A stretch of 64,000 nucleotides of DNA from a virus (IMGVR_UViG_3300027983_002388), one strand, 5' to 3'; positions 5,888 through 51,785 are shown, numbered from the stretch's first letter. The notes: generated by a model not told the origin, from the letters alone. Numbers and translations: made by a program.

Positions 5888-7066
5888 ATGGCTGATGATA
5901 CTTTTCGTCCAAGACGACCAAACCCGCCAGATGATGAAGATCAGGTAACGGGCGAAGATGAAGGCGGCATGTCCGCTTTGAATATGGCAGAGAAGATGCG
6001 ACAACAGGCGGCTGGAGAGGATAGTCAATCAGATGACAATCCTAAGCTAACTGGCAACTTCAATATTAAGGGGATGGAAAACGCCCCGCCTGAATTCATG
6101 CAAGCACTAAAAGCCGCTCAGGGTGGCCCGCAGCAGAAAGTTCAGCAAGAAACATCCGGTCATGAGCCGAAGCGTGGCTTTGGCCAGATGTCTGGTGGTG
6201 GAGAAGGTCCAGGTTCAGCACCCGCAGCACCAGTCGCCAAGAAGCGTGACGCTGCATCGACAAGCTCAGGCCACTTGAAAGAATTGCTGGAAGGACTGAA
6301 AGGTTCGACCACAATTTATGAAGAGATTGAGTTGCCTTCGAGGGGTCGTTTTTACGACGGCACTGATGGTCCCGCAAACGGAGTTGTTTCTATTCGTCCG
6401 ATGACGGGCGAAGAAGAACAAATTCTGGCAACCCCACGATTCGTTCGTAAGGGACAAGCCATCAACATGATCTTCCAGCGATGCCTCAAGGAACAGTTCC
6501 GTCCCGAACAACTCTTGACCATCGACCGGACCTACATGCTGATTTACCTGCGTGGTATTTCGTATTCACCGAATTACGATGTTGAGGTAAAGTGTCCTGA
6601 ATGTGAAAAGAAGTTCGGAACCACAATTGACCTCAATACGCTATATGTCGAACCGTGTCCTGAAACATATGGGCCACAATTGCAAGATGTATTGCCAACA
6701 ACCAAGCTGCCTTTCTCATATCGGCTTTCAACTGGTCGAGATGAGCAAGAGATCACGGATTACCGTGATCGCCGCATCAAGGCTTTCGGTGACGCCTCTG
6801 CTGACGATACTTTGATCTACAGAACGTCTATGCTGCTTGATGATATCGACGGCTTGACCAATAAGGGCGAACTTCAGATTCTTCTAAAGAATCTACCGAT
6901 CAGCGACGTATCGTATGCACGCAACTGTATCAACGAGCCACCATTTGGCGTTGATACAAATGTAGAAATTGTTTGCCCTAGCTGTCTACAGGACTTTGAA
7001 GTTGATCTTCCACTGGAGGCCAATTTTTTCTTCCCTCGACGGAAGAAAAACAAGACCCAAGCATAG
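5888..7066 (+). CDS. Baseplate hub / tail assembly chaperone, T4 gp26-like, with long low-complexity N-terminus
   Basis: IELPSRGRFY...IRPMTGEEEQIL...L..IDRTYMLIYLRGISY...CPEC...CPSC. Confidence 0.75.
   Translation: MADDTFRPRRPNPPDDEDQVTGEDEGGMSALNMAEKMRQQAAGEDSQSDDNPKLTGNFNIKGMENAPPEFMQALKAAQGGPQQKVQQETSGHEPKRGFGQMSGGGEGPGSAPAAPVAKKRDAASTSSGHLKELLEGLKGSTTIYEEIELPSRGRFYDGTDGPANGVVSIRPMTGEEEQILATPRFVRKGQAINMIFQRCLKEQFRPEQLLTIDRTYMLIYLRGISYSPNYDVEVKCPECEKKFGTTIDLNTLYVEPCPETYGPQLQDVLPTTKLPFSYRLSTGRDEQEITDYRDRRIKAFGDASADDTLIYRTSMLLDDIDGLTNKGELQILLKNLPISDVSYARNCINEPPFGVDTNVEIVCPSCLQDFEVDLPLEANFFFPRRKKNKTQA
7024..7030 (+). other. Candidate -1 slippery heptamer T TTT TTC
   Basis: In the 0 frame of the gp26-like ORF; the -1 frame is open into the downstream ORF at 7069. 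Confidence 0.6.
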
Positions 7067-21447: not shown

Positions 21448-23100
21448 TCACTGAGACTCTACAGGATTCTCTGGTTGAAGTTTCAATCCTCTGTGCTGAA
21501 TTGCCGCTGTAATCAGCCCTTTGAACAAAGGAGCGGCGTTCATCAACCTGCTTTTGAATTCAGGGTGAGCCTGAGTTCCAATGAAATAAGGGTGAATATT
21601 ACGATCCAACTCCATAACTTCAATAAGTCCAGTTTCCGGGTTTCGCCCACTAATTCTAAATCCCCGTTTAGCATATTGTTCAGAAAATTCCGGGTTTACC
21701 TCATATCGGTGGCGATGTCGTTCGCTAATCAATGGCTTGCCATAGACTTCGGACGCAATGCTATCCTTGGTCAATTCACACTCATACGAACCCAATCGCA
21801 TATTGGCTGATTTCTTATTCAGCTTTTCTTGCCCCTCAACAAAGTGAATGACCGGATATGGAGTTTCCTTATTGAATTCAAGGCTATTAGCTCCATCTAA
21901 ATCACATTCATTCCGAGCAAATTCAATTACAGCACACTGTAGTCCCAGGCAAATGCCCAAAAATGGAATCTTCTTCTCACGAACGTACTGAATGGCTTTG
22001 ATTTTACCTTCAGTACCTCGATTATCGAATCCACCAGGAACAATAATGCCATCCAAGCCCTCAAAATGCTTGTGGATGCCTCGCAAGTCTTTGTATTTCT
22101 CCAATTCATCAGCTTTGATCCACTTGATGTTAACACGAACATCATTGGCAATACCAGCATGAAGAAGGGATTCCTTCAAAGACATATACGCTTCATCACA
22201 ATTGTCGTATTTGCCAAATACGCCGATCTCAATGGCGGGCATGTGGTTGGAGACGTATTTTTCTACAACTTCACGATATTTGTGAATTCTACAAGCACTC
22301 CGATTCAATCGGAAAAGGTCAACGAAAAGATCGTCAACGTGCCGGTCGTAGAATTCAAGTGGAACCTGATAAATGCTCTGTACGTCTGGAGCATCAAATA
22401 TACACTCCCGTTTGACGTTGGTGAGCATCGAGACTTTGGCCAACAGCTTCTCAGGGATCGCACGATCTACACGACAGAAAATCACGTCGGGTTGCAGGCC
22501 ATGCCGCTGAAGCTCTTTAACGCTGTTCTGGAGGGGCTTTGTTTTGAATTCTTTTATCGTATTCACCCACAGAATAGGTGCGACCATAGCGATCAACACA
22601 TCGTCTTTGAACTTCTGCTTGAATTGTCGCATAGCTTCAAAGAAGGCAAAGCTCTCACTATCGCCAACGGTGCCGCCAATCTCAACAATAACAACGTCTT
22701 TATCTTTGCCCAAATCCACGAGGCGTTGCTGGATTTTATCTGTCAAATGCGGAATAAGCTGGATGGTTTGACCAAGATATTTGCCAGCTTCTTGTTCCTC
22801 GATCAATTCCTTGTGCAAAGTCCCTGACGTGCAAATGTTCATCTTGTTGACATTGATGCCAGCAATTCGCTCATAGTGTCCGAGATCAAGGTCGGTTTCC
22901 GTGCCATCATCGCAAAGGAAACACTCCCCGTGTTCACGGGGAGCCAAAATTCCCGCATTTGTGTTCAAATACGGGTCGAATTTGACGAGGGTGATGTTGT
23001 GACCACGGAACTTCAGCAAAAGCCCGACGCTCGCTGCCGAGACGCCCTTGCCAGTACCAGAAATCACACCACCGACCACTATAAGGTACTTAGCTGACAT
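21448..23100 (-). CDS. pyrG: CTP synthase
   Basis: GGVISGTGKG, KFDPYLN, DLDLGHYER, GICLGLQ, QAHPEF. Confidence 0.97.
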   Translation of the reverse strand: MSAKYLIVVGGVISGTGKGVSAASVGLLLKFRGHNITLVKFDPYLNTNAGILAPREHGECFLCDDGTETDLDLGHYERIAGINVNKMNICTSGTLHKELIEEQEAGKYLGQTIQLIPHLTDKIQQRLVDLGKDKDVVIVEIGGTVGDSESFAFFEAMRQFKQKFKDDVLIAMVAPILWVNTIKEFKTKPLQNSVKELQRHGLQPDVIFCRVDRAIPEKLLAKVSMLTNVKRECIFDAPDVQSIYQVPLEFYDRHVDDLFVDLFRLNRSACRIHKYREVVEKYVSNHMPAIEIGVFGKYDNCDEAYMSLKESLLHAGIANDVRVNIKWIKADELEKYKDLRGIHKHFEGLDGIIVPGGFDNRGTEGKIKAIQYVREKKIPFLGICLGLQCAVIEFARNECDLDGANSLEFNKETPYPVIHFVEGQEKLNKKSANMRLGSYECELTKDSIASEVYGKPLISERHRHRYEVNPEFSEQYAKRGFRISGRNPETGLIEVMELDRNIHPYFIGTQAHPEFKSRLMNAAPLFKGLITAAIQHRGLKLQPENPVESQ

Positions 23101-23137
23101 TGACTCTCCTTTGGTAATTCCAAACAATATTTTCAAG

Positions 23138-25761: not shown

Positions 25762-27798
25762 TCATTCTTGAGACAATTTAGTATATCCACCTTCATGAAC
25801 CATTCTGATAACGTCTGATCCTTCGAGCATTCGCATAAGGTCTGGATCATGAGTCGTGACAAACACTTGCTTGTCTTCGGCCAACTCACAGATCATATTG
25901 TAAATGCCTTGGACACCCAAAGGATCGACATTGGTGCTGACTTCATCTAAGAAGACAATAGACGGGATGGAACCGGAGCTAACGGTCATGACGTGTGCGA
26001 AAGATTGGCTCACAGCAAGATTGAGACGCCGACGTTGCCCTGTAGACATAGCATGATATACATAAGGATCGCCATCCACTGGATTACGTTCAATTTTTTC
26101 GTTCAACTCATTATCGAACTTGAGCGTGATCTTATTGTCGATAAGGAACTGAAGCCAATAATTGATACGGCTGTTAAGCTCTGGAATAATCCCATCCACA
26201 ACCCATTTGCGAATACCATGTTCGCCGAGGCCAGCAATCCAATAATCAAAATATGGCAATTCAGCTTCGAGAGCTTTTACCTCGACTTCTTTATTGGCCA
26301 CATTGAGAGTGACGTTATCAAGTTCCACTTTATCGTTGTCGATAAAGTCTTGATATGGCGAGCGACCTGCCAACTCTGTTTTTTTGCTTTCAACCGAATT
26401 CTTGATTTGAGAAATCTCTTGTTCCAAAAGAGCTTCAGCACTATCCGCTTTTGGTTCACGCACCTTAGAGGCGGCAACCAGATCATTTCTCAATGTTCTG
26501 AGTTGGGAATCAATTGAACCAATCTTTGTCACAACCTGACCGATCATGGTTGTGACTTTTCCCTGTCGCAGCTTCAGATCATCAGTTTTAACGGCAATCT
26601 CTTTGCCTCCCGTCATGGCCGTCTGAATATCAAGATTGATCTCATTGATTTCTAATTTAAGACCATTCACATATTCAAGGATATTTTCCTCTTCAACAAC
26701 ACTGCGGCATTTTCCGCAGCGGGTGCCGGGCTTATTGGATTCCAAATCAGCAATCTCAAATTCTTTTTTCTTCCGATCAGCCAACTTAACTCTCGCAGTC
26801 GCAGAAAACTCTTCATACTGCTTGGTAAGTCCCTGAGCCTCTAATTTCAATTCCGCTTCTTTGTCTTTCACCAACTGAAGTTTCTTCTCCAGATCAGCCT
26901 TAGAAACCTCCAAAGGAGGAATCGAATCATTGATAGAGGTAATCTTGACCTGAGCCTCTTGGTATGCCAGGAGTGCAGCGCCAGTATCAGTAGAGGCTAA
27001 TTCTTGTCTCTTGGTTAGAATGGATTTCTCAAGAACAACGATCTCATTTTTCTTCGTGAGTTGCCAATCAACATGCTTCTTTTCAGTCAACAAAAGACGA
27101 CGATTGGCATCATCCTTAATGGACAATAGAAGGTTGTATTCTTTTGCTTTCGAGTCGATATTCTGTTTAATCACCTTCCGCAACTCTTTGGCGTTTTCAT
27201 GCCACTCTCGATAGTCGCCCAATGAAAGCAGATTTTCTACGATCTCTTTCTTTTGAGGATTATCACACTCCAAGAAGCACAATCGCTGATCGTCTGTGAA
27301 TATGCACATATTCACAAAAGCGTCATAAGACAAACCGATGACACTTTCAATCTTCTTTTGAGTAGTCTGCATTGTGCCTTGAGTAATCTCTGTGGTCTTG
27401 TCCCAGATGGCATCTGGGCTTTCCCACAATCTCAAGCTGTTTCCGTCTTTGCGATCCAACCGTGTACGAACAACACGGTAATCGCCAAAGATAAGTTCAA
27501 CTTTGCAGTCTTTACCTACAAGGTTGTGAACGACATCATTGACTTTCAATTTTTGTTTTACGGTTTTGCCAAAAAGACCATAAACAATAATCTCTTGCAA
27601 TGAGCTTTTGCCTGTTCCATTACTGGAAATCTTGGTTTCATCAGATTGTTCACTTGATGAATCAATTGCCTTAGCATCTCGATTCTCGCCACGAATCAAA
27701 ATGATATTGCCGTATTTCTCCAATGGAAGTTGGATACCTACGGGACCGAAGGGCAAAAAGTTCCACGCCGCAATGTGTTTGAAGGTTAGATTTATCAT
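25762..27798 (-). CDS. sbcC: SbcC/Rad50 (gp46-like) ATPase
   Basis: NGTGKSS, coiled coil, CGKC hook, MSTGQ, FLDE, THD. Confidence 0.9.
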   Translation of the reverse strand: MINLTFKHIAAWNFLPFGPVGIQLPLEKYGNIILIRGENRDAKAIDSSSEQSDETKISSNGTGKSSLQEIIVYGLFGKTVKQKLKVNDVVHNLVGKDCKVELIFGDYRVVRTRLDRKDGNSLRLWESPDAIWDKTTEITQGTMQTTQKKIESVIGLSYDAFVNMCIFTDDQRLCFLECDNPQKKEIVENLLSLGDYREWHENAKELRKVIKQNIDSKAKEYNLLLSIKDDANRRLLLTEKKHVDWQLTKKNEIVVLEKSILTKRQELASTDTGAALLAYQEAQVKITSINDSIPPLEVSKADLEKKLQLVKDKEAELKLEAQGLTKQYEEFSATARVKLADRKKKEFEIADLESNKPGTRCGKCRSVVEEENILEYVNGLKLEINEINLDIQTAMTGGKEIAVKTDDLKLRQGKVTTMIGQVVTKIGSIDSQLRTLRNDLVAASKVREPKADSAEALLEQEISQIKNSVESKKTELAGRSPYQDFIDNDKVELDNVTLNVANKEVEVKALEAELPYFDYWIAGLGEHGIRKWVVDGIIPELNSRINYWLQFLIDNKITLKFDNELNEKIERNPVDGDPYVYHAMSTGQRRRLNLAVSQSFAHVMTVSSGSIPSIVFLDEVSTNVDPLGVQGIYNMICELAEDKQVFVTTHDPDLMRMLEGSDVIRMVHEGGYTKLSQE

Positions 27799-27841
27799 GC
27801 GGGCAGTATAGAACTTCTCGCAATGTGCTGCAATACGATTG

Positions 27842-28576
27842 TTATTTATTGTTATTTATATTGCTGTCAAGCACAGTCTTTGGCATCAACTTACGAAGAA
27901 CGGCACTCTTTTTTCGATCAAGAGTTTGATATAGCTCTTTGTGCCGTTCCCAGAAGAAAATGTTTCTATTGTTAAGCATTCTCTTGATCTGTCCGGTAGG
28001 GTGAACCGTCTTTTGAATTTGACCCTTATAGGTCAACTTGCCATCCACGTCTTTCAAATGCGGAATGTCAGTAAAGTTCCAAGTGTTGTCGGTCTTCACA
28101 AGAAACTTACCAAAGTGGTTAATCAAGCACTCATGAAAACTGCCTTTGTCATTCATGAAAGACATGATATTCAAAATATCCTGCACGCACATCCATTGAT
28201 AAGACGGACCAACCAAAAAACCGTGACTACGATTAGAAGATACAACCAGATCATCTTTAGCTATCTTGAATATTTCGCTAATGTCATCCTGAAAGGAAAC
28301 ATCGGCATCCCAATAAGCAAATACAGCAGATTCTTTTTTGGCGAAGTTGGCAATTGCTCGCAATGTATCGGAACGTATATCTCCAAAAGAAATGCCAGTA
28401 AACAGCATCGCTCCGGTTTCAAGAATTTTACTTTTGGTGTTGGTCGAAAGACCAAACCCAACAATGACTATGCGTTCTGGATCGTGTTTGGCAATTTCTC
28501 GCAAGGAAACTAACCAAGATACACCCCACAAGTGCCAATACGCTTCGTCAAAACCAGTTACAACATAGTTTTTCAT
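27842..28576 (-). CDS. Hypothetical protein, glycosyltransferase-like
   Basis: VVTGFDEAY...YWDADV (DxD). Confidence 0.45.
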   Translation of the reverse strand: MKNYVVTGFDEAYWHLWGVSWLVSLREIAKHDPERIVIVGFGLSTNTKSKILETGAMLFTGISFGDIRSDTLRAIANFAKKESAVFAYWDADVSFQDDISEIFKIAKDDLVVSSNRSHGFLVGPSYQWMCVQDILNIMSFMNDKGSFHECLINHFGKFLVKTDNTWNFTDIPHLKDVDGKLTYKGQIQKTVHPTGQIKRMLNNRNIFFWERHKELYQTLDRKKSAVLRKLMPKTVLDSNINNNK

Positions 28577-28577
28577 A

Positions 28578-29636
28578 TCACTCCACTTTTTGACAAATTT
28601 TGCGACCGATACGCAGAAGCTCATCTCGATCAAGATTTTTGGGGCCAATCTCATCAACATACTTACCAAGCATTTCATCGCCCCTGTATAAGATAGCTTT
28701 GGCATCTTGGATTACATGCTGATCCATAATCTTTTTTTGCTGCTTGATCTCCAAGCTGCCCATATTATTGGATTCCAGCATCTCTTTTCGCAGGGCAACC
28801 AAATCGGTTGCTCCAATATCGTCAACTTTAATACGAATGAAATTTTTGTTCAAATCGTATTTGTCTTTATCCTTGATGCTGATGACCAAGTGAACGGGAC
28901 TGAAATCATTTGGGATATATGTCTTCTTGCCAGTTTTACCATTGAAAGCAATGATGTGCTTCTTCTGGAATGCTTCACCGAAAGAAAGCTCCAAAGGAGA
29001 ACCAACATATTCGACCTTCTCATTAACCCGTTGTTCGGCATGGTAGTGACCAAGGAACGTGTGTTTATAATGATCGAATAAACTAACGCCCACACTCACC
29101 ATATCGCCGTCATGTTCGATGGAAATATCAGACTGATGGGTGCCATGCAGGATAGCTCCGTCAATAGCAATATGTCCTAACGCATATTCTGGGCTTCCTG
29201 GTTTTTCCTTGAGTTCTTCCAACGTGGTAATCGGATTGTGTGTGAACGGAATAAAGTCCCAATTCGATCCAGCGATATTGATACGCTCAGGACGAGCGAT
29301 AATCTGAACGCCGGGCAGTGCCGATAAAGGAATGACGCTGCTGACCGAGGTTTTATCGTTGTACCAAAGATCGTGATTTCCCAGCAGCAAATATAGTTTG
29401 AATTTGCCGCCCCTCAGTCGCTTCTCCAAAGTCTCGAAAGCTCTTTGGTAGGTGTAGACCTCGATTTTTTGACGGTCGTGATATAGATCGCCACCAAATA
29501 GAATATTGGTTATTCCTCGTTGTTCAGCAACGTCAAATACCCAATCAAGTGCCTTTAGGCAATCTTCCAATCGACCATTGGATCGCTTGTGCGGGTGAAC
29601 GTGAATATCGCTAAAGATCAAAACTTCATCATTCAT
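28578..29636 (-). CDS. sbcD: SbcD/Mre11 (gp47-like) nuclease
   Basis: FSDIH, GGDLYH, GNHD, GHYH. Confidence 0.9.
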   Translation of the reverse strand: MNDEVLIFSDIHVHPHKRSNGRLEDCLKALDWVFDVAEQRGITNILFGGDLYHDRQKIEVYTYQRAFETLEKRLRGGKFKLYLLLGNHDLWYNDKTSVSSVIPLSALPGVQIIARPERINIAGSNWDFIPFTHNPITTLEELKEKPGSPEYALGHIAIDGAILHGTHQSDISIEHDGDMVSVGVSLFDHYKHTFLGHYHAEQRVNEKVEYVGSPLELSFGEAFQKKHIIAFNGKTGKKTYIPNDFSPVHLVISIKDKDKYDLNKNFIRIKVDDIGATDLVALRKEMLESNNMGSLEIKQQKKIMDQHVIQDAKAILYRGDEMLGKYVDEIGPKNLDRDELLRIGRKICQKVE

Positions 29637-29920
29637 ACCGATTCTCCGAGCAGTTCGAGAAGGACATCGCCATGACAGAGTTTGGGACGACACCAGCAAC
29701 CCAGACGTTTTCCACGAAGGTCTTCAAGCGATGCCATTAAATCAGGTTGGGTCTTTATCCATTCCCGATATTTGTCAATGGCTTCATAACGGGTCGCAAC
29801 TTTTGTCTCGGCCAAGCAACTTGGTTTATGACTGAAAGGGTTGCCCCAGATTGAAGGTCGTCCGATATAAACGTCGTACTCATCACGACCGCAGTGTACG
29901 ATACTGGTTTTCATGTTCAT
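29633..29920 (-). CDS. DUF4326-family protein
   Basis: DVYIGRPS.WGNPF...LRGKRLGCWC.P..CHGDVL. Confidence 0.8.
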   Translation of the reverse strand: MNMKTSIVHCGRDEYDVYIGRPSIWGNPFSHKPSCLAETKVATRYEAIDKYREWIKTQPDLMASLEDLRGKRLGCWCRPKLCHGDVLLELLGESV

Positions 29921-31042: not shown

Positions 31043-31132
31043 GGGAGTAAGGCGACTGCTGGTTGTGTCGCACCTGCCTGTAAAGCAGGGCCTACAAGGT
31101 AAACATCGCAGGTTCAATTCCTGCTGCTCCCA
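31043..31132 (+). tRNA. tRNA-Tyr(GTA)
   Basis: GGGAGTA/TGCTCCC acceptor; CCTGC-CTGTAAA-GCAGG; GCAGG-TTCAATT-CCTGC; long variable arm. Confidence 0.85.
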
Positions 31133-31204
31133 CTGTGTACGTCAGATTTATTGTTGCGTCCTCACTCTTGTAGTGCGGAGGCAACTAATGAAAGAATAAC
31201 AAAC

Positions 31205-31276
31205 GGATCGGTAGCTGAGATGGAGTATCGCTGGCCTGAAAAGCCGGAGACGAGGATTCGAGCGACTCCCGATCCA
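31205..31276 (+). tRNA. tRNA-Phe(GAA), degenerate D and T stems
   Basis: GGATCGG/CCGATCC acceptor; CTGGC-CTGAAAA-GCCGG; imperfect T stem. Confidence 0.55.
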
Positions 31277-31288
31277 CTGAAAGGAACA

Positions 31289-31849
31289 ATGATGGAACCG
31301 ATTTATTTGCCATCTGCTGGCAACGATATGAGCAGAGTGGTTAACTCTATTTTCGATGAAACGAAGGGTCTTGAATGGCTGACCGAGAGGTCTGCCCGGA
31401 AAGAATACTTCATGTCCACGAAAGACAGAGAGTATAGCTACGGGAACAGACATCAAGGCGACGTAATGTACAGAAGCAAGCCATTCAGTTTTTTAGTGGG
31501 ACAGTTTATGGAGTACATAAACGAAACACAGAAATCTGAATTCAATGTTTGTTTTCTGAACCGCTACGAAAACGAACAACAGCACCTTGGATGGCACGCT
31601 GATGATTTTCCGGGAATGAGAGCCGATCAGTCAATCGCCGTGTTGTCGTTGGGAGCAGAACGGGAAATATGGTGGAAGGAAAAATCCTTCAAAGGAATTA
31701 TTCCACCAGAAAATAAACAACTGTTGGAACACGGCAGCATATGGATTATGCCTGTTGGATTTCAAGATGTTTATCTTCACAAAATTCCAAAACATGGAAA
31801 GCCTTGTGGAGAAAGGATCAGTTTGACATTCAGAAGTTTTGTTGATTGA
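31289..31849 (+). CDS. alkB: AlkB-family 2OG-Fe(II) dioxygenase
   Basis: LNRY...GWHAD...SLG...H.IPK...RISLTFR; true start after tRNA-Phe. Confidence 0.9.
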   Translation: MMEPIYLPSAGNDMSRVVNSIFDETKGLEWLTERSARKEYFMSTKDREYSYGNRHQGDVMYRSKPFSFLVGQFMEYINETQKSEFNVCFLNRYENEQQHLGWHADDFPGMRADQSIAVLSLGAEREIWWKEKSFKGIIPPENKQLLEHGSIWIMPVGFQDVYLHKIPKHGKPCGERISLTFRSFVD

Positions 31850-31946
31850 CGGTAGAAGTCTGTATGTTGTCCACCGGCTTGCCGAGTTCAACGGGACTCT
31901 GAGCTAATGACTCAGACGAAAGATTGATGCTCCGATCAACAAAAAT

Positions 31947-32021
31947 GGCACGGTGATGCAATTTGGCAGACATCTCACGCTTAGAACGTGGGTTCTGTGG
32001 GTTCGAGTCCCACCCGTGTCA
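31947..32021 (+). tRNA. tRNA-Leu(TAG), short variable loop
   Basis: GGCACGG/CCGTGTC; TCACG-CTTAGAA-CGTGG; GTGGG-TTCGAGT-CCCAC. Confidence 0.85.
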
Positions 32022-32037
32022 CTTTCCTGGAAAACAA

Positions 32038-33958: not shown

Positions 33959-34032
33959 GGCTCAGTAGGCAATCGGCAGACCACCCAGGCTTAAACCCAG
34001 GGATGCTGTGAGTTCAAATCTCACCTGAGCCA
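33959..34032 (+). tRNA. tRNA-Leu(TAA), short variable loop
   Basis: GGCTCAG/CTGAGCC; loop CTTAAAC; GTGAG-TTCAAAT-CTCAC; one A-A mismatch in the anticodon stem. Confidence 0.8.
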
Positions 34033-34047
34033 CTTGATTTTTAATAC

Positions 34048-34129
34048 GGCTTTGTGGTGAAATTGGCAAACGCACAGCACTCAAAATGCTGCGTCGAAAG
34101 ACTTGTGGGTTCGAGTCCCACCAAAGCCA
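34048..34129 (+). tRNA. tRNA-Leu(CAA), canonical long variable arm
   Basis: GGCTTTG/CAAAGCC; CAGCA-CTCAAAA-TGCTG. Confidence 0.92.
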
Positions 34130-34247
34130 CTGTTTCGATTTCTGGATCTGGCTCTTACTCGTTGTGAGTAGAAACACCTTTTTTTGGTGGGGTTATAGAA
34201 GTCAAACCTCCAACGGTGATCTCGTAAAGATCACAGGAGAAAGTAAA

Positions 34248-35420
34248 GTGAAGAAAGTCCACATCAATGTCGGAACGATTGGTCACATTGACCACGGGAA
34301 GACGACTCTGACAGCAGCAATTCTCGCTGTTCAGTCCGAGAAGGGTTACGCAAAAAAGAAAGCATACGGCGACATCGCCAAGGGCGGCACCGTTCGTGAC
34401 GTTACCAAAACGGTAACGATCACCACGTCGCACGTTGAGTATGAGACGGATACCCGTCACTATGCTCACATTGACTGCCCCGGTCACGCCGACTATGTAA
34501 AAAATATGATTACCGGGGCTGCTCAAATGGACGGCGCTGTATTGCTCGTCAATGCAGCAGACGGTCCTATGCCTCAGACGAAAGAGCATATTCTGCTCGC
34601 TCGTCAGGTGGGCGTGCCGGATATTGTAGTATTCCTCAATAAGTGCGATCTTGTCAAAGACGAAGAATTGCTGGAACTGGTCGAGATGGAAACAAGAGAC
34701 TTGCTGACGAAGTATGGCTTCGACGGCGAGAAGACTCCGTTTATCCGTGGAGCAGCAAAACCTGCCTTGGATAATCCTGCTGATCCCGCAGCAAGCAAGT
34801 GTATTGTAGAATTGTTGGCGGCTCTGGATTCTTATATTCCTGACCCCAGCCGTTCTATCGACCGTCCCTTCTTGATGCCCGTCGAAGGTGTTCACAATAT
34901 CGAAGGTCGTGGCTGCGTAGTCACGGGCAAGATCGAGCAAGGAACCATCACGGTCGGAACCAAAGTTGAAATCCTTGGGTTGACTGATATTCTGGAGTCA
35001 GTTGTCACCAGCGTCGAGGCTTTCAATAAGCAACTGGAATATGGAGAAGCTGGACAGAATGTCGGTTTGCTGCTGAGAGGCATCAAGGCCGATCAAGTTC
35101 AGCGTGGACAGGTTGTGGCACAACCACGAAGCATCAAGCCTCACACCAAGTTCAAGAGCGAAATTTACGTCTTGGGCAAGGATGAGGGCGGGCGTCACAC
35201 CCCGATCTTCAATGGTTACAAGCCACAGTTCTTCTTCAGAACTACCAACGTCACCGGCCTTGTCCAAATGCCGGAAGGAATTGAGTTGGTCATGCCGGGC
35301 GAGAACACTTGCCTGTTTATCACCCTGGATAAGCCGATTGCTATCGAAAAAGGTAGTCACTTCGCCATTCGTGAGGGTGGTATGACAGTCGGTTCTGGCG
35401 TCGTGACGGAATTGCTGTAA
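34248..35420 (+). CDS. tuf: Elongation factor Tu (Planctomycetota-type switch I)
   Basis: [20 protein letters not shown]; GTG start with GGAGA SD. Confidence 0.97.
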
Positions 35421-35443: not shown

Positions 35444-35485
35444 GCAAAGCGAAAGCGTGGTATAATCAAATACCACGCTTTCGCT
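35438..35485 (+). promoter_or_regulatory. Promoter TGTAAA-N12-CGTGG-TATAAT inside a perfect 16-bp inverted repeat
   Basis: AGCGAAAGCGTGGTAT (35448-35463) / ATACCACGCTTTCGCT (35470-35485). Confidence 0.75.
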
Positions 35486-40837: not shown

Positions 40838-40919
40838 GGCCCTGTGGTGGAATTGGAATACACATGGGACTTAAAATCCCACGCCGAAAGGATTGCGGGT
40901 TCGAGTCCCGCCAGGGCTA
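40838..40919 (+). tRNA. tRNA-Leu(TAA), canonical long variable arm
   Basis: GGCCCTG/CAGGGCT; TGGGA-CTTAAAA-TCCCA. Confidence 0.92.
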
Positions 40920-40922
40920 CGT

Positions 40923-40951
40923 TTTACAAGATGCCTAAAACGTGGTAAAAC
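40923..40951 (+). promoter_or_regulatory. Promoter TTTACA-N12-CGTGG-TAAAAC
   Basis: Window consensus with imperfect -10. Confidence 0.5.
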
Positions 40952-40952
40952 T

Positions 40953-41033
40953 GGCCGAGTGGTGGAATGGCATACACGATGGTTTTAGGAACCATTGCCG
41001 CAAGGCTTGCAGGTTCAAGTCCTGTCTCGGTCA
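40953..41033 (+). tRNA. tRNA-Leu(TAG), canonical long variable arm
   Basis: GGCCGAG/CTCGGTC; ATGGT-TTTAGGA-ACCAT. Confidence 0.92.
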
Positions 41034-41043
41034 CTAATGAGGA

Positions 41044-44250: not shown

Positions 44251-44472
44251 ATGGCAGTTGAAACAGATATTACAAAGCGTTGGGAACAAGGGATAGATCA
44301 CCATCCCAAAAGCATCGCTTTGTTCAAAAAACTAGCAGAAATCGACTTCAAATTCGGTGGAGATTTCTTCGACTGGTCATCAGGTGGCGATGGAGACAAT
44401 GGCGAACATTTAATGTACGAAATGGACATTATGTTCGAGAAAGAAGATGCTGAAATAGGAGCTTCATCATGA
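44251..44472 (+). CDS. Hypothetical protein (GGDGDNGE motif)
   Basis: ORF with SD. Confidence 0.55.
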   Translation: MAVETDITKRWEQGIDHHPKSIALFKKLAEIDFKFGGDFFDWSSGGDGDNGEHLMYEMDIMFEKEDAEIGASS

Positions 44473-45614
44473 AGCGACACACAACCGATCTTAGGCATGA
44501 TTGGAAAAAGACCATTGAAGGTCAGGGAATGTTATTTCATACATTTGATGGCGATATTTATTGGGACGAGTCAGCATACTACGAGTTAAACAGTCCTGAA
44601 GTAGACACCATAGAGGCGGCTACTTACGAACTGAATGATCGTTGTCTTGAAGCTGTTCAACACGTCATCGACAATGATCTGTTAGATGCTTTCTTGATCC
44701 CGCCCGAATTCCATCAGTTTATCCAAGACAGTTGGGAGAGAGACGAACACACCATTTATGGTCGGTTTGACTTTTCCTATGACGGAAAAACCCAACCAAA
44801 GATGTTGGAGTTCAATGCCGACACGCCTACCGGCCTGATAGAAGCTGCTGTTACCCAATGGTATTGGGCAAAAGACAAGTTTCCAAATCGGAACCAATTC
44901 AACTCAATACACGAGCGGCTAATTAAGGTTTGGAAAGAACTGAAGTCCGTGACGCCAGGAGTATTGTATTTTACGGCACTCGCTGGCAATCTCGAAGATT
45001 ACATGAACGTCAATTATCTTCGAGACACTGCCATCCAAGCCGGGTGGGATACTGAATATATTGACATTGAAAACATCGGATGGAACGAAGGTCGCCGTAC
45101 ATTCACCGACCTGAACGAAAATCCAATACAGACATGCTTCAAGCTGTATCCTTGGGAATGGATGCAGACCGACGAGTTTGGCAGAAAACTATTCCTCAAG
45201 ACCACCAAATGGCTTGAGGCTCCGTGGAAGGCAATCCTTAGCAACAAGGCCATTCTGCCTATATTGTGGGAGTTGTTTCCCGATCATCCAAACTTATTAG
45301 AAGCATCGTTTCAACCAATTCGCACAAAACCTTACGTTCAGAAGCCAATTCTGAGTCGTGAGGGAGCTAATGTGCAAATATTTGAGCATGGCGAATTGCT
45401 GCTTAAAACTGATGGTCCTTACGATGGACCATGTGTATATCAACAACTATGGGAACTTCCCAACTTTGATGGCAATCACGCCTGCATTGGTAGTTGGTTG
45501 GTCAACGGCTGGGCTTGTGGAATAGGCATTCGAGAAGACAAAACCATTGTAACGGGGAACCTGAGTCGGTTCGTACCGCACATTTTCGGTGTTCGACCAA
45601 AATACGGGAGTTAA
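44469..45614 (+). CDS. Glutathionylspermidine-synthase-like ATP-grasp ligase (YgiC/YjfC family)
   Basis: YWDESAYY, GRFDF, LEFNADTPT, FKLYPWEW, KPILSREG, GSW. Confidence 0.92.
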   Translation: MKRHTTDLRHDWKKTIEGQGMLFHTFDGDIYWDESAYYELNSPEVDTIEAATYELNDRCLEAVQHVIDNDLLDAFLIPPEFHQFIQDSWERDEHTIYGRFDFSYDGKTQPKMLEFNADTPTGLIEAAVTQWYWAKDKFPNRNQFNSIHERLIKVWKELKSVTPGVLYFTALAGNLEDYMNVNYLRDTAIQAGWDTEYIDIENIGWNEGRRTFTDLNENPIQTCFKLYPWEWMQTDEFGRKLFLKTTKWLEAPWKAILSNKAILPILWELFPDHPNLLEASFQPIRTKPYVQKPILSREGANVQIFEHGELLLKTDGPYDGPCVYQQLWELPNFDGNHACIGSWLVNGWACGIGIREDKTIVTGNLSRFVPHIFGVRPKYGS

Positions 45615-46908: not shown

Positions 46909-47661
46909 ATGATGAAGAAGGTTGTGCTTTTTGCTTGTTTGTTAATGATTGGATGTAGCAAATCCACCGAAACAGTTGCCGAGGCACAAGTGTCGGTACA
47001 GACAGAGCCGACAATGCTTCAAAGGTTTTTTGGAGGCCCCACCAAAGAAGAGATTGCCACACAGCAAGAACTATTGGCTCAACAGCAAGAGTTGCACGCT
47101 CAACAACTCAAGGCCAAACAAGAGTTGCAGGCTCAACAGCTTAAAGACGGAGACGCATTGGTTGCTAAGTGGGCTGATAAGATTCAAGAAACAGCAACTA
47201 AAGACAGCTTCGGATATGAGCGAATGGAAGGTTTGACGGAAGCTGATCCCTGGGGTCAGCAAATTAAGGTGAACTATCGCCAAGAATGGTTCAAAGAAAT
47301 TGCAACTATTCAATCTGCTGGACCTGATGGTGTTTTTGGAAATACCGATGACTTGATTAGAACAAGATCAGCCAAGAATCCCGCTGGAATCATTGAGGGA
47401 ATTTCTTCATTAGGTTGGGTTGTATTGGCTTGGTTGTTTTGTGGTGGATTGGCATTGGCATTCTCGTCGGGAATTGGTCATCGCCGAGTCACTAAAGGCA
47501 AATCAAAAAATCATCGTCGTCCACTTGTGTTCGGCGTGACAACTGTATTATTTGCTCCTGTGGCGGTGTTGATTTACGGATTGCAATTCATTGGCGGGGC
47601 TTTGGGTGCAAACGGTGAATTCTTCGATGGATTTGACTTCGACTTCGACATTGACCTATGA
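46909..47661 (+). CDS. Lipoprotein/membrane protein with a GspG-pseudopilin-like C-terminal motif
   Basis: Lipobox MIGC; DPWG...SAGPDGVFGNTDDL; two TM helices. Confidence 0.6.
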   Translation: MMKKVVLFACLLMIGCSKSTETVAEAQVSVQTEPTMLQRFFGGPTKEEIATQQELLAQQQELHAQQLKAKQELQAQQLKDGDALVAKWADKIQETATKDSFGYERMEGLTEADPWGQQIKVNYRQEWFKEIATIQSAGPDGVFGNTDDLIRTRSAKNPAGIIEGISSLGWVVLAWLFCGGLALAFSSGIGHRRVTKGKSKNHRRPLVFGVTTVLFAPVAVLIYGLQFIGGALGANGEFFDGFDFDFDIDL

Positions 47662-49915: not shown

Positions 49916-50707
49916 ATGCGTGCCGAAATTGTCCACGTTACGGACCACGCTTTGTTGCGATGGAAAGAACGTGCGTCGAAAACAGGTGAAGTCAACGTAG
50001 AAGAAATCGTTCAGGCTGTAAAAGAATCCAAGGTCATCAAAAAAAACGAACCTTTGCCTTACCCGATGCCTCGTTTAGATGGATCAGTTTACAGCTTCAA
50101 TGCCGGAGTGTTGTTCATTCTCGAATCAGTAACCATTGATGAATATCGACTCGTCACAGTTATCGCCGACGAGCCGACCTATCAACGGATTGCTCGACCG
50201 CCGAAGAAACAACTTAATCCTCGAAAGAGACAGAAATACGAGGAAGTTCAAAAGGTGCAAATCGACATTCCTTGCTTTGAAAGTTTCATCGAAGAACGTC
50301 AATGGTTGACCGACGAGAAACGAAAACTCGAAAGTGAACTGGCAACAACAGCGAAGAAATCTTCCACTCGCAAAGAAATATTGAAGGTGTGGGGCGAGAT
50401 TGAAGCCCGACTCACCGAGAACAAACCTCAATATCTCGAAGAGCGGAAAAAATCAGGAGACGGATATGTTGACTATGGTTCTCTTCTTTTGCAAATTATC
50501 AGAGAGTTAAAAGAAATACGCTCTGAACAACAGGAATTACGTAACCTAATCGAAGGCTCCAATGGACAACAACCGAGATCACCGAGCAATCGGAAAAAAG
50601 CTAGACCTCTTCATGTTCAGCCCTCTATCGCCGGGTTGTCCGATCTGGCTCCCGAAGGGAGTTGTGCTTTATCAGTCTTTGCTGAACCGCATTCGTCAAC
50701 TCAATGA
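49916..50707 (+). CDS. Protein with a RelE/DUF4258-like N-terminal domain (TDHALLRWKER) and coiled-coil C-terminus
   Basis: HAxxR helix, beta meander ending VTVI. Confidence 0.45.
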   Translation: MRAEIVHVTDHALLRWKERASKTGEVNVEEIVQAVKESKVIKKNEPLPYPMPRLDGSVYSFNAGVLFILESVTIDEYRLVTVIADEPTYQRIARPPKKQLNPRKRQKYEEVQKVQIDIPCFESFIEERQWLTDEKRKLESELATTAKKSSTRKEILKVWGEIEARLTENKPQYLEERKKSGDGYVDYGSLLLQIIRELKEIRSEQQELRNLIEGSNGQQPRSPSNRKKARPLHVQPSIAGLSDLAPEGSCALSVFAEPHSSTQ

Positions 50708-51785
50708 AGCCAATGGTTGCCAAGAAGTTCGGACCCCACTTATATGGAAGTCCGAACTTTATGCAACCAGCGGACACCTGGATCACTATGCAAAAAATAT
50801 GTTCTTCGTCAGTGATAAGCCTGCTGGCGAGTCCCACGAAGAAGGACATGAAGATCAGTGCTTAAAACCAATGAATTGTCCTGGGCATATGGAGATATTC
50901 CGCTCGAAACAGTGGAGCTATCGAGACTTGCCTGTTCGATTCGCTGAATATGGTCCTTTACACCGCAATGAAGTTTCTGGTGCCTTGGGTGGGCTAACTC
51001 GCTGTCGTGCATTCTGCCAGGATGACGCCCACATTTTCGTTTCGCCGGACAACCTACAAAGCGAAATCAAACGAATCCTTGTCATGATCGAAAGAGTTTA
51101 CGGATGGTTTGGAATGAAGTTCCGATCCGTACTCAGCACTCGTCCTTATAACTTCATGGGCGAGAAGTTGGTTTGGGATAATGCTGAGGCGAACCTCGAA
51201 GATGCTTTATGCGAAAATGGATTGAAGTTCGAGATTGCCCATAAAGACGGTGCGTTTTATGGTCCAAAAATAGACTTCATTGTGACTGATTCCCTTGGAC
51301 GTGATTGGCAAACAGCAACAATCCAATTGGACTTCCAGTTGCCTCAAAGATTCGGTTGTACCTATACCGACAAGGACGACAAAGAGCAAACTCCAATTGT
51401 CATTCACAGAGCAATATACGGCAGCTTTGAAAGATTCATTGGTGTATTGTTGGAACATACTGACGGGCATCTACCATTATGGTTGGCTCCTGTTGGTGTA
51501 ACCATTGCACCAATCAGCGACAAAGTTGCTGAATACGCTGATGAGATCAAAGAGGTTTTGCTTGCTCATGGAATTCGGTGTGAATGCGATCACTCGAATC
51601 GAACTCTGCAACAGAAGATTGCCATCGGGTACGATAAAAAAGTACCCTACATGGTCATCTTGGGAGAGAAAGAAAAATCCGCAAGAACCGTTACCCTCAA
51701 ACAAATGAGATCAACTGCTGTCGCACAGGAAACCTTATCTTTGGAAGTATTCCTTCCTCAGATGGTCGCACTGGCGAAAGAGTAA
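50562..51785 (+). CDS. thrS: Threonyl-tRNA synthetase lacking the N-terminal TGS/editing domains
   Basis: Starts RDHRAIG; LKPMNCPGH, HRNEVSG, AFYGPKID, IHRAIYGSFERF; anticodon domain present. Confidence 0.95.
   Translation: MDNNRDHRAIGKKLDLFMFSPLSPGCPIWLPKGVVLYQSLLNRIRQLNEANGCQEVRTPLIWKSELYATSGHLDHYAKNMFFVSDKPAGESHEEGHEDQCLKPMNCPGHMEIFRSKQWSYRDLPVRFAEYGPLHRNEVSGALGGLTRCRAFCQDDAHIFVSPDNLQSEIKRILVMIERVYGWFGMKFRSVLSTRPYNFMGEKLVWDNAEANLEDALCENGLKFEIAHKDGAFYGPKIDFIVTDSLGRDWQTATIQLDFQLPQRFGCTYTDKDDKEQTPIVIHRAIYGSFERFIGVLLEHTDGHLPLWLAPVGVTIAPISDKVAEYADEIKEVLLAHGIRCECDHSNRTLQQKIAIGYDKKVPYMVILGEKEKSARTVTLKQMRSTAVAQETLSLEVFLPQMVALAKE

Follow-up and report, generated by a model that had tools for sequence, protein, structure and literature searches.

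Why does a large virus carry its own gene for the elongation factor EF-Tu (tuf), from where was the gene obtained, and what could its product do that the host factor does not? These questions are raised by a gene at positions 34248-35420 (+ strand) of a 64,000-nt stretch of viral DNA (referred to below as the window). A preliminary description, prepared from the sequence of the window, recognized the gene as a phage tuf with a planctomycete-type switch I (effector) region, and proposed that it points to a planctomycete host and serves as a backup against defences that target EF-Tu. Our analysis makes it probable that the gene encodes a working GTPase that carries aminoacyl-tRNA (aa-tRNA) within a phage translation module, and that it belongs to a side-lineage of planctomycete EF-Tu with a retuned amino-acid pocket.

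The tuf gene, its product and its tRNA surroundings

We found that tuf forms an intact ORF of 390 aa with a GTG start codon, located 8 nt downstream of a Shine-Dalgarno sequence, AGGAG (34235-34239, +), recognized by direct reading of the sequence. Against the NCBIfam equivalog model TIGR00485 the product scores 602 bits, above the cut-off of 522.4 bits, over profile positions 9-392 of 394, and its alignment with EF-Tu chains of known structure covers the whole length (E = 1e-169, ~60% identity). The initial EF-Tu call, with a non-canonical switch I, is thus confirmed. Like bacterial EF-Tu (E. coli TufA/TufB, T. thermophilus), the protein comprises three domains and retains G1-G4 and most aa-tRNA contacts. 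The G1 (GHxDHGKT), G3 (DCPGH, with the catalytic His84) and G4 (NKCD) motifs and the Mg-binding Thr of switch I (E. coli T61) are all found, without variation throughout the clade to which the protein belongs, and according to the alignment H84, T25, T61, H66, E215, T228, E259, F261, N273, Q329, T338, E378 and T382 are all kept. In contrast to bacterial EF-Tu, the protein, which begins with VKKVHIN, lacks the first 7-8 residues of the primary factor, as does the whole clade; switch I is two residues longer, and the G5 motif is relaxed, with GAAK instead of the canonical GSAL. It also differs by the substitutions D216G, F218H, G257S, M260A, R230K, R233Q, R327K, Y331F and D336N (E. coli numbering), and the gene does not lie in the tRNA-tuf-tRNA-Trp context of its bacterial counterparts. 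Comparison with the 97%-identical genes of two relatives (L005 and L008) gave dN/dS values of 0.030-0.040 at dS of 0.30-0.48; tuf is under strong purifying selection.

Within the window, tuf is flanked by tRNA-Leu genes and small ORFs. Two tRNA-Leu genes (taa, 75 nt; caa, 83 nt) are located directly upstream (33959-34130, +), an arrangement found likewise in L005. Farther upstream, genes for Tyr-gta and Leu-tag tRNAs (31043-32022, +) belong to the same translation island, and another tRNA-Leu pair (taa, tag) lies downstream (40838-41034, +). A perfect 16-bp hairpin (35448-35485, without assigned strand), detected by pattern scan only, is placed 28 nt past the tuf stop codon and may act as a terminator. 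We located tuf within a tRNA array in every phage locus examined (eight loci, with 8-22 tRNAs per 13 kb), and its place in such arrays is syntenic across a family of myoviruses of ~0.4-0.7 Mb. The arrays of this lineage encode chiefly Leu, Ser, Tyr and Phe tRNAs.

Several members of these arrays are unusual. Two tRNAs with Leu anticodons in the window (31947-32022 and 33959-34033) measure 75-76 nt and are devoid of the long variable arm; such tRNAs are also present in L010, L013 and L016 and are numerous in related phages. They occur beside tRNA-Leu of normal length (82-83 nt), and all carry A73. In a 532-kb IMG/VR phage, ARAGORN predicted a tRNA with the CTA anticodon (amber-reading) approximately 700 nt 5' of tuf (L011:5218-5308). 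Amid the tRNA island of the window we also noted a gene for an AlkB-like 2OG-Fe(II) oxygenase (31151-31849, +; PF13532, E = 8e-18).

A search of five phage records, the complete one included, revealed no EF-Ts, and host EF-Ts is therefore presumed to recharge the phage factor. Such reliance on host EF-Ts would favour an EF-Tu of host origin. The same negative result would also accord with a non-translational use of the protein, either as a decoy for toxins that bind EF-Tu or nucleases that depend on it, or as a head assembly or chaperone factor of the T4 kind; EF-Tu is known to bind the major head protein of T4 and to be a cofactor for several toxins, according to work cited in PMC13157829. 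However, the residues for GTP hydrolysis, Mg binding and contact with the T-stem and acceptor of tRNA, for which a decoy has no need, are kept under purifying selection, and tuf always resides within tRNA arrays. We consider a non-translational role highly improbable.

The phage and its relatives

The window falls within a single IMG/VR virus record of 98,662 bp, with a CheckV completeness of ~20%. The assumption that the contig derives from a phage, and not from a chromosome, proved sound: the record contains tail sheath and baseplate genes. Those for a tail sheath protein of 787 aa and a sheath stabiliser are located just beyond the window (L001), while the baseplate hub gene, a phage hallmark, lies at 5888-7066 (+; PF12322, phrog_150). 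Genes for a DnaB-like helicase, a Dda-like helicase, a class II ribonucleotide reductase and a CTP synthase, together with six tRNAs, are also found on the contig. It further encodes a threonyl-tRNA synthetase (ThrRS; 50562-51785, +) truncated at the N-terminus but with its catalytic and anticodon-binding domains (TIGR00418, 463 bits, profile positions 170-558). SbcC/SbcD-like nuclease genes (25762-29699, -) precede tuf and are syntenic with it in related phages.

The same neighbourhood surrounds tuf genes with 97% (226-kb contig) and 81% (262-kb contig) identity on independent contigs that stem from other samples. The shared order is SbcCD-tuf-glycosyltransferase-GSP-synthase. Of the remoter relatives in IMG/VR whose tuf is of this type, G308 is 532,729 bp long and 100% complete and G307 measures 436 kb (85%); three of them encode a tail sheath protein of ~785 aa. 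A further relative is found on a 669-kb contig. The phage is most likely a myovirus of ~0.5 Mb, of which only 98.7 kb are assembled, the size being judged from the ~20% completeness and the 436-669 kb relatives. In INPHARED no near relative was present; the matches are host fragments or mislabelled records with at most 62% identity.

The labels given by IMG/VR to two of the relatives (G308 and G310) read 'provirus', which might raise the suspicion of a bacterial or chimeric contig with an ordinary host tuf. This is contradicted by the recurrence of the tuf neighbourhood, at 81-97% identity, on independent contigs obtained in other samples, by the phage structural genes on the contig, and by the GC content of tuf, which agrees with that of the phage and not with that of the bacterial copies. 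Neither the canonical tuf context nor NusG accompanies the gene, NusG having been found in none of the remoter IMG/VR relatives that carry such a tuf (G307 and G308 included). Such an artefact is thus effectively refuted by synteny, and we regard it as extremely improbable.

Other genes of the window deserve mention. The CTP synthase gene (21448-23136, -) has at least 120 close metagenomic relatives (69-95% identity) on contigs that reach 673 kb, which suggests a large and widespread family of huge phages. A full-length glutathionylspermidine-synthase-like gene is located at 44469-45614 (+; PF03738, E = 7e-145), and a gene of this kind is found downstream of tuf in L005 as well. The protein encoded at 46909-47661 (+, 250 aa), which had been described as GspG-like and compatible with a planctomycete host, gave no match in Pfam (even at E = 0.05) or in PHROG, so this designation could not be upheld. 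It possesses a lipoprotein-type signal peptide (LMIGC), a coiled stretch rich in Q, E and K, and two C-terminal hydrophobic helices; the motif DPWG...GPDG..G..DD is its only pseudopilin-like trait.

Phylogenetic placement, gene exchange and host

Switch I of the phage protein (residues 40-58, encoded at 34365-34421, +) pairs with the canonical YDQIDKAPEEKxRGITI plus two extra residues in the alignment to solved chains, and all 14 close homologues that were aligned share its KGG-type sequence. We surveyed this region in 155 EF-Tu genes, for which outgroup bacteria were a broad sample matched by the universal HADYVKNM pattern and planctomycetes were retrieved by a separate genome search, and distinguished three forms. 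The first is the canonical IDxAPEEKxRGITI. The second, VAKASESQGRRDPTKILTI, is that of Phycisphaerae and one Planctomycetaceae copy, with scattered examples in Verrucomicrobiota, Lentisphaerota, Acidobacteriota, Hyphomicrobiales and Saccharibacteria. The third, the KGG type, is characteristic of the phage group and of the majority of the 30 Planctomycetota genes that match best; its sole carrier outside Planctomycetota among the 155 genes is a MAG labelled 'Bdellovibrionota' (L044), placed by the tree within the planctomycete polytomy. Exact look-up assigned KGG-form genes to Polystyrenella, Caulifigura, Rubinisphaera, Planctomyces, Blastopirellula and Aquisphaera, and those bacterial genes that we checked reside between tRNA-Thr/Tyr/Gly/Thr and tRNA-Trp. 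The view of this switch I as a planctomycete trait is therefore correct for the primary EF-Tu of Planctomycetia, but does not extend to the phylum, as Phycisphaerae and some Planctomycetaceae copies differ.

With regard to the VAKASESQGRRDPTKILTI form, its loci comprise L046, L088, L095, L097, L060, L103 and L117. These proteins group with planctomycete EF-Tu (100/99) and not with canonical EF-Tu.

Three trees, calculated with FastTree (189 rows), a quick IQ-TREE run and a careful IQ-TREE run (76 rows, LG+C20+F+G4 PMSF), agree with each other. In the careful tree the phage protein belongs to a 37-row clade (support 100/99) on a long stem of 0.23. Its sister group is the primary tuf of Planctomycetaceae (94/88), and both are enclosed in a 99/96 clade which includes Blastopirellula. 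The 37-row clade is nested within Planctomycetota (SH-aLRT of 99 for the phylum in the quick IQ-TREE), far from the canonical EF-Tu outgroups, and the tree thus bears out the planctomycete origin expected from switch I. The clade pools only genes of huge phages, several of which are classed as such only by their IMG/VR labels and tRNA arrays, and non-primary bacterial tuf copies. A second, unrelated clade of phage EF-Tu (L032-L036, IMG/VR; L032 on a 427-kb contig) shows very long branches and, unlike the KGG-type protein studied here, retains the canonical switch I.

The nearest bacterial relatives (76-78% identity) are not primary tuf genes, but stand-alone second copies in Gemmataceae and Isosphaeraceae. 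In Aquisphaera insulae, the primary gene (681 bits, tRNA context) is 64% identical to the phage protein, and the second copy (WP_165221193.1; 589 bits), which adjoins purH and has no tRNAs beside it, is 76% identical. We observed a matching pair in a second MAG, with a primary tuf in tRNA context and a second copy outside it. As the Aquisphaera primary tuf falls outside the 99/96 clade, the second copy is not a recent duplicate made within the genome. Second copies are not the rule, since 25 of the 30 planctomycete genomes surveyed possess a single tuf. The second copies share with the phage protein the clade, the short N-terminus and the G/H pocket described below; unlike the phage genes, they are placed in chromosomal, high-GC loci (57-64%) without tRNA neighbours. 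In turn, the primary tuf genes of Planctomycetia (Polystyrenella, Caulifigura, Rubinisphaera, Blastopirellula, Aquisphaera) have the same KGG switch I and 64-71% identity, but their products are 398 aa long with an N-terminus reading MAKE.F.RTKPH; the phage gene has neither this N-terminus nor their tRNA-Thr/Tyr/Gly/Thr to tRNA-Trp context. Two others of these 30 genomes possess a separate and deeper lineage of N-terminally short second copies, L171 (G075:C1, Planctomycetaceae-like) and L172 (G195:C5, Blastopirellula), which carry pocket changes of their own (D216N, G257Q, M260S).

Phage and bacterial rows interleave within the clade: in one subclade, P0016 has a phage-like context and P0018 and P0102 stand among bacterial genes. 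In AU tests, which relied on fast searches under LG+F+G4, a simpler model than that of the PMSF tree, the placement of all phage rows in one clade was rejected (delta lnL 100.5, p = 0.007), while a single clade of bacterial second copies was not (p = 0.14; 0.07 with the deep lineage included). Because phage monophyly is rejected, at least two transfers between phage and bacterium are needed, and these phages and planctomycetes have thus exchanged tuf repeatedly, whichever the direction. Even the closest bacterial copy shares no more than 78% identity, so none of these transfers is recent. The GC content of tuf tracks that of each phage (43-62%), in contrast to 62-69% in the bacterial copies measured, which indicates long residence in phages.

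As for the host, we consider a planctomycete reasonably likely, the signal coming from the EF-Tu gene alone. The two other genes proposed as phylogenetic markers did not corroborate it. Compared with 40 genomes of many phyla, ThrRS displayed 39-49% identity, with the best scores in Acidobacteriota and Syntrophobacteraceae, and CTP synthase (PyrG) 38-45% identity everywhere; neither revealed a preference for planctomycetes. The GC content of this phage, 44%, is much lower than in the Aquisphaera locus and the second MAG, which carry the closest named copies, and the range of 38-55% in these phages fits Planctomycetaceae or Pirellulaceae better than such high-GC loci. Phages infecting planctomycetes have been predicted before, in a study that reconstructed phage and phage-like fragments of more than 300 kb (Jaffe et al., 2022; PMC9040852).

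The amino-acid pocket and the putative role of the phage EF-Tu

The clade is set apart by substitutions at sites that are 87-100% conserved in a comparison set of 30 canonical, eight 'type 2' and 22 planctomycete primary sequences. At 12-13 such sites it has a different consensus: V104L, P163D, D216G, F218H, R230K, R233Q, G257S, M260A, D272Q, R327K, Y331F and D336N (E. coli numbering). The phage protein bears the signature of this accessory clade (short N-terminus, G216/H218, S257, A260, K230 and Q233), and the phage and bacterial members of the clade differ from each other at only three consensus positions. By contrast, primary tuf of Planctomycetia keeps D216, F218, G257 and M260.

The most distinctive change affects residues E213-G214-V215-H216 of the phage protein (34884-34895, +), which the alignment equates with E. 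coli E215, D216G, V217 and F218H. D216 and F218 line the pocket for the amino-acid side chain (PMC6386890). When the six canonical pocket residues (H66, E215, D216, F218, T228, N273) were inspected, 216 and 218 were changed and the other four kept. Positions 216/218 read G/H in 135 clade sequences versus D/F in 131 other EF-Tu, and the variants are accessory copies: L016 (G/Y), L014 (D/H), L032 and L036 (D/H, i.e., F218H in two members of the unrelated phage EF-Tu clade), L088 (G/R) and L095 (G/Q). The last two are second copies in Hyphomicrobiales, VAKASESQGRRDPTKILTI-form genes of Rhodomicrobiaceae and Bradyrhizobium, respectively. A second altered segment, in domain 2 (35010-35063, +), carries G257S, M260A, R262N and D272Q; the changes at 257, 260 and 272 lie beside E259, F261 and N273, pocket residues that are conserved. 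Farther on, positions 327-336 lie next to Q329 and T338, which contact the T-stem.

The same pocket positions have been targeted in engineered factors. EF-Sep and EF-pY both carry D217G, with F219Y in EF-Sep and F219G in EF-pY (UniProt numbering), among the mutations selected for phosphorylated, negatively charged side chains; alanine at E216 and D217 was used to admit bulky ones (PMC6386890). L016 naturally displays the G/Y pair. Unlike in EF-Sep and EF-pY, the pocket of the phage EF-Tu is remodelled in part, with H66, E215, T228 and N273 retained, and nothing ties the natural variant to phospho-amino acids.

We read the protein as functional but specialised, the specialisation being inferred from the positions of the substitutions only. 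In the reading that we favour, a lineage which branched from the primary tuf of Planctomycetia, near Planctomycetaceae, would supply a full-length, constrained EF-Tu to the translation module of the phage, inside its tRNA arrays, and host EF-Ts would recharge it. The rebuilt pocket for the amino acid and A76 (D216G, F218H, G257S, M260A, D272Q) may shift the preference in aa-tRNA binding, to which the domain-3 changes R327K, Y331F and D336N may contribute. The phage would thereby possess more than a spare copy, namely an elongation channel tuned to its own tRNA set, rich in Leu, Ser, Tyr and Phe. Because bacteria also keep the paralogue, its role is not purely phage-specific.

A plain backup, which replaces host EF-Tu inactivated in abortive infection (Lit cleavage, Doc phosphorylation) or raises its dosage, would be another explanation and is the one given in the preliminary description. 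Al-Shayeb et al. (2020; PMC7162821) report EF-G, EF-Tu and EF-Ts among huge-phage genes, the EF-Tu likewise accompanied by tRNAs and aminoacyl-tRNA synthetases, and propose that phage elongation factors sustain efficient translation. That tuf is intact and strongly constrained, and placed among tRNA genes, themselves commonly taken as counter-defence, would agree with such a function. The known target sites argue otherwise: the Lit-site changes R58K, G59T and I60V (RGITI to KTVTI) recur in every KGG-type EF-Tu of planctomycetes, the primary ones among them, and T382, the target of Doc, does not vary. No phage-specific escape is visible at either site, and nothing in these comparisons supports evasion of the two toxins. 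A backup also leaves unexplained the ~12 changes fixed in the clade and concentrated in the aa-tRNA pocket, as well as the retention of the same paralogue by bacteria. We regard it as unlikely.

The substituted positions also allow a different reading, in which the pocket and the interface of domains 1 and 2 (G257S, R230K, R233Q, D216G, F218H) resist a small molecule or toxin that plugs the pocket. We take the pocket altered in this clade to be the binding site of thiopeptide antibiotics, and G257 and R230 to be resistance sites for GE2270A and pulvomycin, respectively. Given that presumed site, resistance to a pocket binder would be an equally direct reading of the changes. Self-resistant second tuf genes of antibiotic producers provide a precedent. 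Divergent second copies are sporadic in bacteria, as is typical of resistance genes, and independent accessory lineages (L032, L036, L088, L095) also change 216/218. On the other hand, no biosynthetic cluster or toxin gene adjoins the bacterial copies examined, Q124, G316, Q329 and A375 of the kirromycin site show no change, and a literature search for GE2270A and G257S returned nothing that would bear out the presumed resistance sites. As an account of the gene as a whole, we consider insensitivity to an inhibitor rather improbable.

A bolder version of the specialised-factor reading may be put forward tentatively, although we think it unlikely. The protein might be a natural 'orthogonal' factor, whose enlarged and de-acidified pocket and altered domain 3 would make it the dedicated carrier of a subset of aa-tRNA, and which planctomycetes would have acquired from huge phages. 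Candidate cargo would be the phage Leu/Ser/Tyr/Phe arrays, including the 75-76-nt tRNAs with Leu anticodons. If this were true, huge phages would run a partly private elongation pathway.

The presence of EF-Tu in huge phages is already published, while the paralogue clade, its pocket signature and the exchange with planctomycete chromosomes were not found described in our literature search; the accessible text of PMC7162821 contains no mention of Planctomycetes, and none of pocket remodelling or exchange with bacterial paralogues. Returning to the favoured reading, that of a planctomycete-derived EF-Tu with a retuned pocket, its implications are several. It provides a sequence-based lead to Planctomycetia as hosts of a widespread, uncultured family of freshwater phages of ~0.5 Mb, and it shows a core translation factor that has passed between huge phages and bacteria repeatedly. 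It also presents a natural EF-Tu that differs at the very positions which engineers mutate to alter aa-tRNA specificity, and which may become a tool for work on the genetic code. The pocket signature thus offers a concrete and testable case for elongation tuned by a phage.
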